Part shown: piece by piece, positions 1,631-39,562 of the stretch
Numbering within the stretch: the stretch's first letter is position 1
Layout of the letters: every line of letters begins with the position of its first letter
IMG/VR virus record: IMGVR_UViG_2690316243_000006
Length of the DNA stretch: 39,562 nt
Reading direction: 5' to 3' (one strand)
Source: a virus
Taxonomy: Duplodnaviria > Heunggongvirae > Uroviricota > Caudoviricetes
Notes under the pieces: model-generated
The model's input: the letters and a program-made list of their open reading frames with translations, nothing else
Told to the model about the DNA's origin: nothing
The model's database searches: none
Made by a program: the position numbers and the translations under genes

Positions 1631-1924
1631 ATGGACAATCATGTAACGACGAGAAATCGAAAAATGATTGAAAATGCGGAAATCTATAATGATTATTTTT
1701 CCGATTATTCAGATGCCTGCAAATACAGTTCGAGTGCGGGAGAGTTCATATGCTTCAACTTTTTTATTAAATCTTATGTTTTTCCTCCACAGCAAGAAGA
1801 TGGAGGTGTGCCACCTCCTGAAATCACTTTGCACCGTATAGCCTCCGTCTCAATGATGGAGCAACAGGCTAATGAGCTGTATAGCATTCTGGGAACGATT
1901 CTACAAAAGCGTGAATCGGACTAA
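1631..1924 (+). CDS. Hypothetical protein (97 aa) in AT-rich cargo, divergent from com-mom
   Basis: ORF with AGAGG upstream of the ATG; no recognisable motif. Confidence 0.4.
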   Translation: MDNHVTTRNRKMIENAEIYNDYFSDYSDACKYSSSAGEFICFNFFIKSYVFPPQQEDGGVPPPEITLHRIASVSMMEQQANELYSILGTILQKRESD

Positions 1925-2091
1925 TGATACCGGTTCATTTGCCTGCCCGGATGGGGAAGCAGGATTGACTGCTCCATAAGCAGCTATATTTCTGAATACG
2001 AAATACTATCCAGCGATTACATATGGCTGGATAGCGGCAAAGATGTTTTCATTAGTGTCAAACCGGCAGAGGACACCACCGGTTTGTATTG

Positions 2092-2346
2092 TTACATCAT
2101 GGTACTGTCAGTTCCGGGCTGAGCCGGGTCTGGTTGCTCTGGCTGCGCGTCGGTTTTCGGCTCATTATCAGCATCACTGGCCGCAACTGCTGGCCCAATA
2201 AGTTTTGCCAGCACTTCATCAACGTAAGTGTCGATTTGTGCCTCAAAATCCTTGCGGACCTGCGCTTTCAGCAACTTATTTACTTCACCGGAATACAGTG
2301 CCTGTTTTACCAGGTCTTCAGTGACGGTGCCTTTAATTTCTGGCAT
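2092..2346 (-). CDS. Hypothetical small acidic helical protein (84 aa)
   Basis: Strong RBS AAGGAGGA 7 nt upstream of the ATG; protein-like composition; downstream of the 60-aa membrane protein gene. Confidence 0.5.
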   Translation of the reverse strand: MPEIKGTVTEDLVKQALYSGEVNKLLKAQVRKDFEAQIDTYVDEVLAKLIGPAVAASDADNEPKTDAQPEQPDPAQPGTDSTMM

Positions 2347-2381
2347 GTATATCCTCCTTATGCGGGAATAAAGCCCTGCAA

Positions 2382-2564
2382 TCAGGGCTGGGTCGGGTCT
2401 TTTGGGAGCGGAGTTACCTGCGCTGTTTTACTGAGTTTTTCAGCTGCTGCGTCCTCAATTTTGCGGCGAACATAATTTCTGATGGCCTTATAACCACCAC
2501 TCACCAGATATAACGCACATACTGCCGTGCAGAAATACAATAAAATAAGCTGTAAAAATGTCAT
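2382..2564 (-). CDS. Small single-pass membrane protein (60 aa; true start ATG at 2564, the ORF-track start at 2576 is a TTG)
   Basis: GGGAGGG RBS before the ATG; N-terminal hydrophobic helix LQLILLYFCTAVCALYLV followed by a basic tail. Confidence 0.5.
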   Translation of the reverse strand: MTFLQLILLYFCTAVCALYLVSGGYKAIRNYVRRKIEDAAAEKLSKTAQVTPLPKDPTQP

Positions 2565-2579
2565 TATCCCTCCCAATTA

Positions 2580-2620
2580 TTGACATGGTGTTGACACCGG
2601 TAATATCTGTTAGGTAAAAA
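2580..2620 (+). promoter_or_regulatory. Candidate sigma70 promoter on the + strand
   Basis: TTGACA at 2580-2585 and again at 2591-2596; TAATAT at 2601-2606; imperfect dyad GGTGTtgACACC at 2587-2598. Confidence 0.3.
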
Positions 2621-2660
2621 GGTGCACTGCATTTTTTGCTTTGGATATAACGATCTTTTT

Positions 2661-2701
2661 GCCGCCGGTTTCTTGTTTTCCCTTACCGGCGGCATTTTTT
2701 T
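2661..2701 (+). terminator. Candidate intrinsic terminator on the + strand
   Basis: GCCGCCGGT ... ACCGGCGGC stem (9 bp, 15-nt loop) followed by a run of seven T at 2695-2701; on the minus strand the stem is followed by AAAAAG, so it is not a canonical terminator for the esterase gene. Confidence 0.45.
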
Positions 2702-2708
2702 ATCCTGC

Positions 2709-4763
2709 TTACGCGTTATTCACTTCCACCACGATACTGTCAATCAGTACCGGGTAAGTCGCATTTTTAGTGATATCGGTCACGCGCAACTTGTCTGCCG
2801 TAAACGTGCCGACCGGAGACTGCGACAGCATGAATGGTGTCCCGTCCTTACCATCAATGACCGGCGTCACCTCAATACTGTTGTTACCGGCAAAACGGAA
2901 GCCCAGCGTATGCCATTCGTTATTAAATGCGCCGAATGACCCCAGCTTCGTGTTCTGCGCCGTGTTTCCTTTGTGATACATCACGTTAAGGTCTGTGGCA
3001 TCGCTCTGTACGTAGAACGATGCCAGCAGGTTATGACCGGCATTTCCTTCCAGAGTAACCCCTTGCGGCAGGGCAGAAACCGGCCAGTACAGCGCCAGTG
3101 CGTACTGATTAGCCGTAAGCGCGCCATCGAGTTTAAAACGACAACTGACAAGACCACCTTTACCCAGCAGGTCCGCACCATTACCAGCATCATGCTCAAG
3201 GTACCAGGGGGCTCTTCCTGTTTCCTTGGTCAGTTTCATTGCCTTACCCCCGCTGGCTCCGGCATCATCCACGATTTGAGCCTTGCCACCTCCGGCAGCC
3301 CAACCCTGTGGTGTCAACCGTCCTTCAGACTCAGATGCCCGGTAAGCAAATAGCGTACTCATCGTCGTGGTGTCTGCGGGTGGCGTGGACGGTTTTGATG
3401 GTGTATCAGGTGACGGCTTCTCATCCGGTGGTGTCACGGTCTGCCCGCGCATCAGTTCAGCCGTGCGCCCTGCATGGAGCATAATAGCTGAGGCCAGACG
3501 GTCTGAAATGACGCCCCTGCGTGCCCATGAGCTGAAATGGCTGTCACGCTGTGTCGAAACAAAACTGCCCTGGGTTCGGGATGCTGCACCGTAATACCCG
3601 ACAGCCACAATATCCGGGTCTTCCGCCGGAGCATTCGTTGGCGTGCTCTGTCCATTCTCATCCGTCAGGAACGGTACAAAGAAAATTTTCTGTGCTTCCT
3701 TGCCTTTGTAGCCACCGTATACTGCCTCATATTTATCGGTGCCAGCGTTTTTCCAGTAATACGTGGTATCACCGCAAATCCACGGCACCGTGGTGGCATT
3801 TCCACTCACGCACTGCGCAGCAAGCGGAGCCAGGTCAGTTCTGAACTGCTGAACCATGGCCGTGAATAAACTATTATGCTGCTGGCTTCCTGAGGCAAGG
3901 TCTGCCTCTCCCTGCATCCAGACCACAGCCAGAAGTTTGTTTTTCGGGTTTTTCGCCAGCGCGACTTTGGTGCGGCTTACCAGGTCCTGATACAGAGGTT
4001 TACCGGCCCCCCAGCGTGAAGAATCAGCGGAAGCACCGCTGGCCTCACTGAATGAGCCGTCGGCTCCAGTGGTGAATGCTGACCCGCCACGACAACAGGG
4101 CACCAGAAGTATCCCGGCATTCTGTGGGATATAGGGAAGCAGTTTTTTGGCAATATGCAACCCCTGACCGACAGTCCCGTACTGGCCTTTTGCCAGATCA
4201 GCTTTCGGGTGGTTTATCCCGCTCATATCCTGAACATCATGCAGGCAGTGGTCTGCCGGAATGATGTCGTTGTATGTACACGACGTACCGTTGGGCGTTA
4301 CCGTACTGCGGCGTGCCAGTTGCTTAATGCGTGGGTCCGGGCGGTCAAACGAATCCGGTAACGGCAGCCCCTCGCCGTAGGCCATGCCATTTGACTGACC
4401 CGCGAGAATGACAACAAAGTAATATTCCGGCTCTGAACTGCTGCCATTCGTGCTACCGGAAGGCCCGGCGTTATCCGGTGCATTCCAGTCGGAGGGCGTG
4501 AGCGTTCCGGCCACGTCAGATGTGATTGGAATGATGCCAGTCACGCCTGAACTGGTGATTTCTGCACTGGGATTACCGGATACCGGCATTACCCATAATG
4601 GCTCTTTCGTGCTGAAGCGGATCACGCAGTCTGCGAAGGTGATCCCCCCTTTATTACCCGAAGGGCGGAAAGGGCTTTCAATAAATGCCACCGTGCCACC
4701 GGCAACCTTGACTGAAAACTCTCCGGGCATGGCGGAGAGCATTTTCCACTTGGAGTCTGACAT
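2709..4763 (-). CDS. Sialate O-acetylesterase-like protein (SASA/SGNH esterase domain, Pro/Thr-rich linker, C-terminal lectin-like domain); resembles prophage NanS-p proteins
   Basis: GQSNGMAYGEG and WMQGEADLASG motifs typical of the SASA family; linker TPPDEKPSPDTPSKPSTPPADTT; about 200-aa C-terminal domain; own promoter region after the gin terminator. Confidence 0.7.
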   Translation of the reverse strand: MSDSKWKMLSAMPGEFSVKVAGGTVAFIESPFRPSGNKGGITFADCVIRFSTKEPLWVMPVSGNPSAEITSSGVTGIIPITSDVAGTLTPSDWNAPDNAGPSGSTNGSSSEPEYYFVVILAGQSNGMAYGEGLPLPDSFDRPDPRIKQLARRSTVTPNGTSCTYNDIIPADHCLHDVQDMSGINHPKADLAKGQYGTVGQGLHIAKKLLPYIPQNAGILLVPCCRGGSAFTTGADGSFSEASGASADSSRWGAGKPLYQDLVSRTKVALAKNPKNKLLAVVWMQGEADLASGSQQHNSLFTAMVQQFRTDLAPLAAQCVSGNATTVPWICGDTTYYWKNAGTDKYEAVYGGYKGKEAQKIFFVPFLTDENGQSTPTNAPAEDPDIVAVGYYGAASRTQGSFVSTQRDSHFSSWARRGVISDRLASAIMLHAGRTAELMRGQTVTPPDEKPSPDTPSKPSTPPADTTTMSTLFAYRASESEGRLTPQGWAAGGGKAQIVDDAGASGGKAMKLTKETGRAPWYLEHDAGNGADLLGKGGLVSCRFKLDGALTANQYALALYWPVSALPQGVTLEGNAGHNLLASFYVQSDATDLNVMYHKGNTAQNTKLGSFGAFNNEWHTLGFRFAGNNSIEVTPVIDGKDGTPFMLSQSPVGTFTADKLRVTDITKNATYPVLIDSIVVEVNNA

Positions 4764-6464: not shown

Positions 6465-7346
6465 TTATATACTTGCAGCCGTCACCCATGCTCCATTTAA
6501 CAGATACTGCAACGGCCGGTAATACACGCCGCCGACGTTATCTGCCGTATTCTTACCGACATCCTGTACTTTAATTCCGGTAAGAACATTGCCGCCCCCC
6601 AGATTCAGATCCCAGCTTTCCCATGTTCCGGGCATATGTGCGGTCACCGACCCCAGTCTTATGGCGGTTACTGTTCCTGATGAGATAGTGATATCCTGCG
6701 TCCCGTCAAAGGGAACACCATTAATTGTGTGGGCATTTGCCAGCCTGTTCGCGGCAACGGCGGTGCCGTCCGATGGCAGGGCATTCGCCGCCCTGTTTAC
6801 CGTTTCCCGTAAACCGACGTTATCGATAAAAGCCCCTTTATCCGGAATGTCTGCGCCGTTCTGCTCCCTGCGCAGGTAACGGTTATCACCTTCGCTTTTG
6901 CTGTAAACATCCAGATTATTACGGGCGGTTCCCTTATTCTCCAGGTCGGCGAGATTCTGATCCTTCGCCAGGGCATTAACGTCAGCGGGACCAAGACTGT
7001 TTTTTGTGGCAAGCGTCCCCAGACCAAGATAACCACGGGCCAGACGCTGGGCCTCCGCACCGGCATCAGCAATTTCTTTCAGGTTATTTTTCCGGGAAAA
7101 GGCATTCGCAGCGATAATGGCTTTAATGGACAGCGTAAGCTGGTTTAACTGCGCCTTATCCGGCTGAATACTGGCTTCAGCCAGAATATTCAGCAGTTCG
7201 GCCTGGAGAATATTCAGCCAGTCCTGACCAATCCAGCTGATACCTTTTTGTCCGTCACCTTCGGTAAACCAGGTGGTGGTATTACTCTGCGCCGGTGCCA
7301 GCGCAGGCATATTCGCCACGCCGGAATTATTATCAACATGAAACAT
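6465..7346 (-). CDS. Tail fibre protein (S-like), with the currently expressed C-terminal variable part
   Basis: 293 aa; reads through the right inverted repeat and gix site; follows the baseplate genes in Mu order. Confidence 0.75.
6804..6829. promoter_or_regulatory. gix/hix-like recombination site (right), crossover core GA at 6816-6817
   Basis: TTCCCGTAAACC GA CGTTATCGATAA; shares the half-site TTCCCGTAAACC with the left site in inverted orientation; lies inside the tail-fibre coding sequence. Confidence 0.7.
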
Positions 7347-14523: not shown

Positions 14524-14650
14524 GGGTTACTGCTTCGTTCTGAGAATTTTTTCGGTCTGTCGGCAGTGCCGGTAAAGCTGCGATAAGGGGAGGTTAAGCG
14601 CCCACTCCGGGCCGCTTTTTGTCACCATCCCCAGCACAATTGCGGCTTCT

Positions 14651-15144: not shown

Positions 15145-15510
15145 TTACTGGACACGGGTACTGGTGGCGCTGGCGAACTTCGCGGAGATATCACCGCCAC
15201 CGTCAAGCGAGGCCGGTTCACTGCTCCAGGCCTTCGTCATCATATGGACTTCACCGGTATCGGCCACGAACTCAATCGTGACCGCAGTCCAGGTGTTGAT
15301 TTCATCGGCAGCCGGTGAACCTTCTCCGCCAGCCGGAAATTTACAGTCCAGCGTCGCCTCACGGGGTTTCTCACGATAGCCATAGACTTTCGCGCCTTTC
15401 ACCACTTCACGCTCAAAGCCGGACGGGGAGAACGTGGCTCCCTCAAGGGTGGCGTACTCCTGTCCGTTCACACGGATGGTGGCCGTGCCCTGATGCTGTT
15501 TTCCGCTCAT
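15145..15510 (-). CDS. Tail tube protein (Mu M / gp40-like)
   Basis: 121 aa immediately downstream of the sheath gene. Confidence 0.7.
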   Translation of the reverse strand: MSGKQHQGTATIRVNGQEYATLEGATFSPSGFEREVVKGAKVYGYREKPREATLDCKFPAGGEGSPAADEINTWTAVTIEFVADTGEVHMMTKAWSSEPASLDGGGDISAKFASATSTRVQ

Positions 15511-15518
15511 GCCTTACC

Positions 15519-17021
15519 TCACAAAATGAAACGGATCTGCGCGGCCATGAAGCGGAACTGGTTAACCAGATCCGGTGTACACATCACATCCAGACGGTTA
15601 CGGTCTTTTGTGTTGCGCTCCACGAGCAGATTCTTTTTAAAGGTGTCCAGATTTTCGACCAGCCCGAGTTCCACCCATTCTTCCCCCAGTGCAATCAGCT
15701 GGAGCGTCATAATCTCCGGCGTCACGATATTCTGACCGGGCCGGACGGGAGTACCGTTATCGGCCAGTTTGTGGCGCGGGAAACGCTGCGTGATAAAGGT
15801 GCGCAGGGAATAACGCAGATATGACAGGGTGTAGATGGTTTCTACATCCAGATAGCTGGGATCGCTTTCGCCGTATGCATTCTGACGGTACATCGTCACC
15901 TGACGTTCAATCTGCACCACATCAGCGGCCGCAACGGTCACCGTGGACATGCCGGTATAAAGCAGGCTGTTTCGCTCTTCCCGCGTCAGACGAGCCGGTG
16001 CTTCAGGTGCCATACGGGCAGGCAGCGCCAGTGTCTGTAATGGTCGGGCCGGATCCGTTGACAGGGAGGGCGCACAGACCGCACAAATGGAGGCCGCCCA
16101 GACATAATCCGGCTCTGGTGCTTTAGGAATAGAAGTGCAGGTAAACAGGAAGTCATTACGGGATTCACCAAAACTGGTTGCCGTACCGAAGGTGCCGGTA
16201 TGCGCCATCCAGACCATACCGTCCGACATTTTTACCGGTCCCCAGCGTTTCAGCAGTTCATCCGCCAGAATTTTGAGATTTGCCGCATCCTTATAGGGCA
16301 TGACGATGTAGTTGTACTGACGATTCCCCATCCCTGAGACGCTACGGGTGATATCGGGGTTTGTTGCCTTCTGTGTTGGCGCGACGAGCTCCAGCGTAAG
16401 ACCGGCCGGTGTAGTTTCACCGTCATAATAGTTCACCCGTAAATCATGAGCTGAGCATTCACCGATAAAGCGGGCGTTAACCCCCATGCTCCCTTTAAGT
16501 CCTTCAGCATTATCACCACTGACTTCAGCTGCGATAGCAGTGAATGGCGCATCAGTGTCAGCGTTAATGACCTTAGCCAGCTATTCCACAAGCTCTTTAC
16601 CTTTTTTCCCCTTACTGACGGGCAGGAGGTAACGGCGACCGCCGATGTAAACACTTAACACCCCGTCTGCCAATGCTGTTCCAATGATATTCATCACGCA
16701 TGCCCTGGACTGACCTGTTCCAGCCCCCTGTGCAATGGCATATAACTCTGTGTCAGGGTTAATGGCGATAAATTCCTCTACCATCAGTGCAATCATGGAA
16801 CCTCGCCCCCAGAGTTCTCTTGCTTGTGAAGCTCGGGTAATACGTACTGGTACATCAAGCTGACCGCGCCCCTGAATGGTGGTGTCTTTCATTGCAGCCT
16901 GACCAAACAACAGTACCGCCTGACGCTGTGGTGGAGTGCCGGTCACGGCCATTGAATTATTGATTTCAATCTGTACCAGCGGAATGCGATTGTTATCGCC
17001 GATATAATCAAAGTTAATCAT
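15519..17021 (-). pseudogene. Tail sheath gene (Mu L / gp39-like) interrupted by one in-frame TAG codon at 16581-16583
   Basis: ORFs 16581..17021 and 15519..16487 are in the same frame; the 31 codons between the TAG and the next ATG are open and read LAKVINADTDAPFTAIAAEVSGDNAEGLKGS; combined length ~500 aa matches a sheath protein. Confidence 0.8.
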
Positions 17022-17308
17022 CAGGACGTCCCCTTGTCTGATGCTGCGGGTTTTTCAGTCGCGGGTTTTTCAGTCGCAGGTTTTTCTGCTGCCGCTCCCG
17101 CGGGTTTTCCGGCGGCATCAGTCGTTGCAGACGCTGCTGCCGGTGCTGCTTCAGCCGCTTTTTCCACCACAATGACGTCCCCGTCATTAAGACGGCGGCA
17201 CCAGAACGGGGTGAAGGGTTTTTCCTCTCCCTCCTGCGCCAGCGGTTTCATGGTGTCCGGATCGCGGATCAGGCATCCCGGCGCGGGTTTGATAAAAATG
17301 GTTGTCAT
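17021..17308 (-). CDS. Mu gp38-like protein with a short EKPAT peptide repeat
   Basis: 95 aa; C-terminus AAEKPATEKPATEKPAAS encoded by a 15-bp tandem repeat at about 17034-17090. Confidence 0.55.
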   Translation of the reverse strand: MTTIFIKPAPGCLIRDPDTMKPLAQEGEEKPFTPFWCRRLNDGDVIVVEKAAEAAPAAASATTDAAGKPAGAAAEKPATEKPATEKPAASDKGTS

Positions 17309-21447: not shown

Positions 21448-21527
21448 GTCAGTGTACGCTTAACTGGTAAAGTCGGTGCCTGCCTCCGGGTGGATCATGT
21501 ATGCGGGTTCGACCCCCGCCACTGACC
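21448..21527 (+). other. tRNA-like structure (perfect acceptor stem and T-arm, no anticodon stem) in the F-G spacer
   Basis: GTCAGTG pairs with CACTGAC (7 bp); T-arm GCGGG TTCGACC CCCGC; U8-A9 and a GG-containing D-loop; no 5-bp anticodon stem can be formed. Confidence 0.35.
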
Positions 21528-39354: not shown

Positions 39355-39534
39355 CAGTATCAAATTTGTTGCCGATACCTTAATTTTATACCGGATTTTA
39401 TTTAATCAGTATCAAAACTAAACAACCTCCAGAATCATCGATCACCTGTTTTATTTCAGTATCTTACAGGTGATTTCACCTCCTTTCACTAAAACCCTTG
39501 TCGGTATCAAATGATTTACCTAGTTACATGTACA
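39355..39534. repeat. Phage left-end (attL-like) region with repeated putative transposase-binding motif
   Basis: CAGTATCAA at 39355-39363 and 39407-39415, CGGTATCAA at 39502-39510, inverted relative to TTGATACCG at the other end; phage ends ...TGTACA at 39534. Confidence 0.55.
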
Positions 39535-39542
39535 GCATCTGG
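39529..39542. repeat. Right copy of the 14-bp direct repeat TGTACAGCATCTGG; contains the inferred 5-bp duplication GCATC (39535-39539)
   Basis: Identical to 351-364. Confidence 0.7.
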
Positions 39543-39562
39543 TTTTTGTCGTTCTCCCCCAG
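39535..39562 (-). pseudogene. vgrG: Host vgrG-like gene, proximal fragment upstream of the insertion point (partial at window edge)
   Basis: Reverse complement reads LGENDKNQMLY, in frame with the fragment at 1-361. Confidence 0.45.

Follow-up and report, generated by a model that had tools for sequence, protein, structure and literature searches.

A probable isolate-private amber mutation in the tail sheath gene of a Mu-like prophage of Shigella sonnei

The tail sheath gene of a Mu-like transposable prophage of Shigella sonnei is interrupted by one in-frame amber codon, and the change, E147amber, is probably a genuine nonsense mutation that is private to one isolate and sits in an otherwise well-preserved element. 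The gene lies on the minus strand of the window (the whole stretch of 39,562 nucleotides that was analysed), where translation of the sheath frame gives 501 codons with a lone internal stop at codon 147 and a terminal TGA (Table 1). Judging from the sequence, the prophage should fail to build contractile tails in a host that has no amber suppressor. As a biological event this is an ordinary isolate-private knockout, in which nothing departs from known biology and no new mechanism or family is involved, and its significance beyond annotation is little.

Table 1. Coordinates of the sheath gene, its parts and the features discussed with it
Feature	Position	Strand	Remarks
Tail sheath gene, Mu gpL/gp39 homologue	15519..17021	-	500 sense codons plus TGA if codon 147 is sense; one amber here
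Amber TAG, codon 147	16581..16583	-	G to T on the coding strand (plus-strand C to A at 16583); next base C, UAG-C
N-terminal ORF, 146 aa, predicted truncated product	16581..17021	-	ORF list; NCBI CSQ18794.1
C-terminal ORF, 322 aa, Met179-Leu500	15519..16487	-	ORF list; NCBI CSQ18789.1; both Pfam sheath domains
31 open codons from TAG to next ATG	16488..16580	-	Residues 148-178 of intact relatives
A6 run (16602-16607), then GG (16600-16601)	16600..16607	-	Intact in the window; -1 deletions in other public near-identical prophage assemblies
Tail tube gene (Tail_tube, PF10618)	15145..15510	-	8 nt past the sheath stop; intact, identical to AF39
DUF2635 gene	17021..17308	-	Directly upstream; stop overlaps sheath ATG; intact; query for sister loci
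tRNA-like element, 80 nt	21448-21527	+	PGAP 'tRNA-OTHER' in AF39; Rfam tRNA, 31 bits

The stop is read on the minus strand from 16583 to 16581 as TAG (CTA on the plus strand), in the context ...GGG AAA AAA GGT AAA GAG CTT GTG GAA TAG CTG GCT AAG... The arithmetic of the frame, 441 nt or 147 codons from 17021 to 16581 and 93 nt or 31 codons from 16580 to 16488, places the ORFs in a common frame, and the 31 codons that follow the TAG (LAKVINADTDAPFTAIAAEVSGDNAEGLKGS) match the corresponding residues of the intact relatives exactly. The original prediction had described two same-frame ORFs split by one TAG, with 31 open codons between them and a combined product of about 500 aa; the ORF list and the translation bear this out exactly, and a restored codon 147 gives 500 aa. 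A chance juxtaposition of two ORFs was ruled out, since the 1503 nt correspond, save for one base, to a sequence annotated as a single 500-aa CDS (WP_021554363.1). Both half-products carry the NCBI label 'tail sheath protein [Shigella sonnei]'. They are the halves of one gene, and CSQ18794.1 and CSQ18789.1 should be annotated as one pseudogene and not as two CDSs.

The identity of the gene as a contractile-tail sheath, which had been proposed from its size, is sustained by domain content and by alignment to the sheath of phage Mu. Membership in a Pfam family was taken as a score above the curated cut-off, and the restored protein passes for both sheath domains: Phage_sheath_1 (PF04984) at residues 217-377 with 117.8 bits (cut-off 31.4) and Phage_sheath_1C (PF17482) at residues 385-498 with 78.7 bits (cut-off 26.9). 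Residues 2-500 of the restored protein align to residues 4-495 of the Mu tail sheath PDB 9khy_a (495 aa) with E=5.5e-149. A database search returned 1126 homologues, and every full-length one measures 492-505 aa; the window copy, with its internal TAG at codon 147, has no single uninterrupted ORF of about that size. It is a member of the Mu gpL/gp39 family by descent, but a pseudogene.

The surroundings of the gene lead to the same assignment. Its late genes follow the canonical Mu order (Gp36, Gp37, DUF2635, sheath, tube, Gp41, tape measure, DNA-circularisation protein and baseplate), and the series DUF2635, sheath, Tail_tube (PF10618), Gp41_Mu and TMP is common to the window and to all the sister loci. 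The likeness to Mu gpL/gp39 (PDB 9khy/9ki1/9lj8) extends over the full-length alignment, the Pfam domains and the gene order. Nevertheless, the prophage is not Mu: the protein match is strong yet clearly divergent, megablast against a phage collection gave just two partial matches at about 80% identity, and the relatives of this prophage end in ...GCGCTATA where Mu ends in ...CA. The allele is formally of the same kind as the laboratory Mu L(am) mutants, except that it is spontaneous and occurs in a clinical-type S. sonnei draft genome, being neither engineered nor selected. Those L(am) mutants were reportedly used in the mapping of the tail genes, and Mu tail-gene amber mutants are said to give heads without tails.

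The nature of the lesion emerges from the comparison with intact relatives. Of the 231 records that megablast returned from complete E. coli genomes, 16 have 99% identity or more. The annotation of all nine E. coli relatives that were fetched gives the sheath as a single unbroken CDS, which has 1503 nt in eight of them and 1500 nt in the ninth and most divergent. The copies in AF39 (OZ547136) and JKHS016 (CP147059) each differ from the window at one position in 1503 nt, gene nucleotide 439, which is T here and G in both. The intact sheath of both genomes, WP_021554363.1, annotated as 'phage tail sheath subtilisin-like domain-containing protein', shares 1502 of its 1503 nt and 499 of its 500 codons with the window. 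On this comparison the ancestral codon 147 is GAG (Glu) and the change is a G to T transversion, E147amber, which answers the question of the residue expected at the TAG that had been raised as a check. The mismatch at 16583 is an isolated singleton, as the nearest other differences from AF39 lie at 14587 (about 2 kb away) and at 17171 (about 0.6 kb away). Sister loci were fetched by exact identity of neighbour proteins (DUF2635 and gpN), and wherever the sheath region is covered, in 18 loci, they encode 500 aa of sheath without interruption; the three closest are separated from the window by 4-5 SNPs per 13-20 kb, and the base at 16583 is G in them as in all the sister loci.

No in-frame stop at codon 147 was found in any of the nine annotated relatives, the 18 sister loci or 22 diverse homologues. 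In the last set, which reaches down to 50% identity, column 147 is occupied by E, A, K, R, G or L, and L148 is nearly invariant. A homologue whose sheath ends at this point, or in which a new gene begins at 16487, was also looked for, and none occurs among the relatives, sister loci and homologues. The rest of the prophage is well preserved. Window positions 363-30014 form a gap-free alignment of 29.6 kb with the AF39 prophage, at 99.4% identity, and the 174 mismatches fall mostly in clustered mosaic patches. Of the CDSs mapped from AF39, which extend from Mom to gp16, the 40 besides the sheath keep the lengths that they have in AF39 and contain no internal stop. ORFs of 702, 310, 81 and 172 aa are present, as would be expected by size for MuA-like, MuB-like, Ner-like and repressor genes, and the TerL-like gene is called at 555 aa. 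A search for defence systems among the cargo genes near mom gave no PADLOC match. The earlier reading of a recent point nonsense lesion among intact structural genes is supported by these data: the amber is the sole gene-wide difference from the nearest relatives, its flanks are unchanged, and the 40 mapped CDSs are free of internal stops.

The distribution of the allele is extremely narrow. The 146-aa product ending at the stop was found only in the source contig of the window, CXCY01000024.1 (S. sonnei GCA_001258795.1), and in an independent Logan assembly of run ERR025737; the exact intact sheath protein is present on at least 1000 public contigs. The window holds three private changes, namely the sheath E147amber, T610S in the tape measure (12696) and A320V in the TerL-like protein (25139), and exact-product look-ups recovered each of them from the same two assemblies and no others. 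Two gut-metagenome contigs that the 146-aa look-up returned were considered as independent TAG alleles and rejected: both end at gene nucleotide 439 with the wild-type G, and they were recovered because exact-product matching brings an ascertainment artefact. A literature search found no publications on ERR025737, GCA_001258795 or CXCY01.

The main competitor of a real mutation is that the T at 16583 arose in sequencing, in the library or in the stock, so that the prophage truly has GAG or the mutation exists only in the culture that was sequenced. The confinement of the allele to one isolate or run among all public assemblies searched would fit this explanation, as would the likely homopolymer artefacts in other public assemblies of the sheath gene and an anomalous 8-nt substitution at the mom-side terminus of the same contig, which is possibly an assembly or polishing artefact. 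The TAG change, however, is a substitution and no homopolymer indel. The Logan contig is identical to the window across 10,359 nt, TAG included, and this k-mer contig runs unbroken over the site and breaks at genuine repeats only (the DUF2635 tandem repeat and the invertible-segment repeats). Since two different assemblers give the same base, an assembler artefact is unlikely; and because the private SNPs of the isolate recur in both assemblies, the reads carry a coherent private haplotype. Both assemblies almost certainly come from one read set and therefore speak to assembler error, not to library, culture-stock or systematic read error. The sequencing-error alternative named in the original prediction is consequently weakened in its assembler form, and what is left of it, an artefact at the level of the reads or of the stock, is improbable though of some weight. 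A second, intact copy of the prophage may also have been collapsed into the same contig.

If the mutation is real, its consequences can be anticipated from the structure of the Mu tail. The Mu sheath is built from 30 hexameric rings of gp39, that is, 180 copies, which are tied by a four-stranded 'handshake' to which one subunit contributes its N-arm, the adjacent subunit its C-arm and the next ring a beta-hairpin of domain I, and a domain-I helix, residues 72-86, touches the tube (PMC11915804). In a non-suppressing host, translation would halt after 146 residues. The resulting fragment would keep the N-arm, part of domain I and the tube-contact helix and would lack the Pfam core (217-498) and the C-arm. 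The 322-aa fragment, which could arise through re-initiation only, would keep the core and the C-arm and would lack the N-arm and the tube-contact helix. Re-initiation is unlikely because no well-spaced Shine-Dalgarno sequence precedes the ATG at 16487, where GGGAG ends 1 nt before and GAAGGA 12 nt before. Neither fragment has both arms, and therefore neither could be expected to polymerise. A partial precedent is provided by deletion fragments of T4 gp18, which fail to polymerise when they are devoid of such regions (PMC3004832). The loss of terminal regions is alike in the two cases, and by analogy a loss of polymerisation would be expected for the 146-aa and 322-aa pieces. The likeness is distant, however, as gp18 has 659 aa and an extra domain and its fragments were engineered for crystallography.

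After induction, the prophage would therefore be predicted to form heads, accompanied at best by tail parts that lack a sheath, and infectious virions would be absent. The premature stop could also affect the tube, chaperone and tape-measure genes that lie downstream, through Rho-dependent polarity. The practical bearing of the allele is that it predicts the Mu-like prophage of this isolate to be non-infectious, which is relevant to experiments on prophage induction or transduction.

This outcome would be avoided if the amber were read through, either by a host amber-suppressor tRNA or by near-cognate readthrough at UAG-C, to a level that gives enough full-length sheath for the prophage to be viable. 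Some natural enterobacterial isolates carry amber suppressors, and there are stronger terminator contexts than a UAG with C as the next base. The protein itself would also tolerate such an event, since the residues accepted at column 147 are so varied that nearly any inserted amino acid should be acceptable, and both the codon after the TAG and everything downstream are unchanged. On the other side, no relative conserves the stop, which argues against programmed recoding; the window encodes no suppressor tRNA; and TAG is the normal stop codon in two of the 43 prophage genes that were examined, those for the TerL-like protein and Gp27. Moreover, a virion needs about 180 sheath copies (PMC11915804), and with a basal readthrough well below a few per cent the yield would drop severely. 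Readthrough sufficient for viability is therefore very improbable, and trace amounts of full-length sheath through near-cognate readthrough are possible. Programmed readthrough was rejected: the stop is conserved in no relative, the window has no cognate tRNA and TAG is not reassigned.

In this context the tRNA content of the window deserves description. ARAGORN predicted no tRNA gene in it. The tRNA-like element at 21448-21527 matches the Rfam tRNA model in its acceptor, D and T arms and has a 24-nt insert in place of the anticodon arm. It was considered as a phage-encoded suppressor and discarded, as it has no anticodon arm, is rejected by ARAGORN and folds no more stably than shuffled sequences (z=-0.8).

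Other disrupted alleles of the sheath gene were encountered in the course of the look-ups. The 322-aa product also retrieves assemblies with a 195-aa upstream product, each with a -1 deletion located 18-24 nt ahead of the TAG site: A6 is shortened to A5 at 16602-16607 in SRR065192, SRR094061, SRR094137 and SRR094138, and GG to G at 16600-16601 in ERR14061149. All five frameshifted assemblies have G at gene nucleotide 439. Proteins corresponding to the frameshifted product, 195 aa long, are on record at NCBI for S. sonnei 53G, S. sonnei 3226-85 and E. coli DEC6B/D. In two 2010-era runs with the frameshift, a second single-A deletion, A7 to A6, is found in the adjacent chaperone gene. As evidence of recurrent sheath inactivation, the -1 alleles were rejected, because their location in the A6 and GG runs together with the companion A7 to A6 deletion is the signature of homopolymer error, and they are probably homopolymer sequencing errors. 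Exact-product look-ups of this kind offer a way to tell a private nonsense allele from homopolymer artefacts.

These alleles, taken at face value, would make of the sheath stretch of about 25 nt that contains the A6-GG run and codon 147 a recurrent target of inactivation in the Mu-like prophages of Shigella and E. coli, in which hosts are selected to retain a tail-less element and the amber is one of several independent hits. Were it true, the element would still be induced, transpose and lyse the cell while being non-infectious, with cargo such as the SASA/DUF6645 gene and mom; the proposal is highly doubtful. Also highly doubtful is the claim of selection on its own, that Shigella and E. coli hosts repeatedly disable the sheath and keep the non-infectious element, for which one could invoke three distinct lesions within 25 nt in near-identical prophages and the 195-aa NCBI proteins that fit the frameshifted product, and which is countered by the homopolymer nature of the frameshifts (two of the runs with an additional A7 deletion), by the ascertainment bias of a look-up that retrieves disrupted alleles only, by the presence of intact alleles on at least 1000 contigs versus roughly ten disrupted ones, and by the privacy of the TAG to one isolate. 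A single spontaneous E147amber mutation remains the preferred account of the allele.

Lastly, the ends of the prophage and its insertion site present a peculiarity of their own. The host flank, positions 1-362 of the window, corresponds to a vgrG gene. The prophage of this isolate forms a stand-alone contig, and the break is attributable to vgrG being multi-copy in E. coli. Insertion sites differ among relatives, with vgrG here, dcyD in AF39, dgcE in HH35 and another site in S. sonnei 53G; the host-prophage junction of the window was found nowhere in the complete E. coli genome collection, which is without Shigella sonnei. Comparison of HH35 with the uninterrupted dgcE target reveals a short YGTA target duplication, and the matching pattern in AF39 suggests one there as well. 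All ten relatives, which represent nine insertion sites and include the finished S. sonnei 53G, end on the mom side in ...TCGCCGCGCTATA|host. The window departs from this: the last 8 nt on this side, GCGCTATA, have given way to the 8 nt that come next in the vgrG target, with no change in length, and the two flanks share 12-14 nt (351-364 = 39529-39542). The altered terminus either was produced in assembly or polishing, at a contig edge that adjoins a repeated gene, or is a true defect of the transposition end, so that the sheath TAG may not be the sole defect of the prophage unless the anomaly comes from assembly. Mom-side reads of the form ...TGTA|TATAGCGCGGCGATTT would mean an assembly artefact, and reads of the form ...TGTACAGCATCTGGCGATTT a truly altered attR and a transposition-defective prophage.

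The sheath gene is also found with single-nucleotide losses in other public assemblies that carry near-identical prophages. Deletions of one nucleotide (-1) fall in its A6/GG run in SRR065192, SRR094061, SRR094137, SRR094138 and ERR14061149, and proteins matching these -1 alleles are present in NCBI for S. sonnei 53G, S. sonnei 3226-85 and E. coli DEC6B/D. In two of the five assemblies the A7 run of the chaperone gene (window about 15115) has a deletion as well, and the losses in both runs are probably homopolymer errors. Exact-product look-up further surfaced two independent gut metagenome contigs, L013 (ERZ914920) and L014 (ERZ27272137), both of which end exactly at sheath nt 439 and carry the wild-type G. 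A branch in the assembly graph could account for their ending there; most likely, the shared end is a coincidence brought out by the look-up itself. Next to the sheath gene, the DUF2635 gene varies between 276 and 288 nt among relatives owing to a variable copy number of GAAAAACCCGCGACT, which codes for (EKPAT)n, and the Logan k-mer assembly (an independent assembly of run ERR025737) is broken at this repeat.

Features of the prophage and its flanks (window coordinates)
Feature	Position	Strand	Remarks
Host flanks	1-362 and 39529-39562		T6SS vgrG gene
Flank-shared sequence TGTACAGCATCTGG	351-364 and 39529-39542		
Cargo block	1664-4763		Between gin and com/mom
SASA/DUF6645 protein	2709-4763	-	684 aa; in cargo block
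Gin-type invertible tail-fibre segment	4849-7346		
Inverted repeats of invertible segment	5483-5622 and 6691-6834		~87% identical
Sheath A6/GG run	16600-16607		-1 deletions in loci L015, L016, L018, L019 and L021 (public contigs)
Tandem repeat GAAAAACCCGCGACT	About 17040-17085		C-terminus of DUF2635 gene
tRNA-like element	21448-21527	+	Rfam tRNA match; between gpF-like and gpG-like genes

The prophage, whose ends lie at about 363 and 39528, is inserted in the vgrG gene of this isolate, whereas in the finished chromosome of S. sonnei 53G (HE616528.1) it occupies another site. The Mu-like element has therefore moved, or was gained independently, within S. sonnei. The mom-side terminus itself is unusual. 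In all ten relatives compared it reads ...TCGCCGCGCTATA followed by host DNA, whereas in the window the final 8 nt have been swapped, at equal length, for the 8 nt that come next in the vgrG target, leaving TGTACAGCATCTGG common to both flanks. In its place, the relatives have a duplication of ~4 bp (YGTA). The odd terminus is either an assembly artefact beside a multi-copy gene or a genuine attR defect.

Between the late genes, the tRNA-like element is oriented antisense to the late operon and scores 31 bits against the Rfam tRNA model (gathering score 29). The alignment matches the acceptor, D and T arms, and the anticodon arm is replaced by a 24-nt insert. ARAGORN made no tRNA call at this position, and the fold of the element was no better than that of shuffled sequence. 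An identical copy is present in the E. coli relative AF39, where PGAP labels it 'tRNA-OTHER'.

In the invertible segment, S/U-like fibre and assembly genes accompany a recombinase, and a partial alternative fibre gene is encoded on the other strand. Besides the DUF6645 protein, the cargo block comprises DUF1378, DUF826 and, on the opposite strand, an ORF of 86 aa; phage Mu is not known to have such a block between gin and com/mom. PADLOC returned no defence match for any of its genes. The exact DUF6645 protein occurs in 4464 indexed blocks of the public contig collection.
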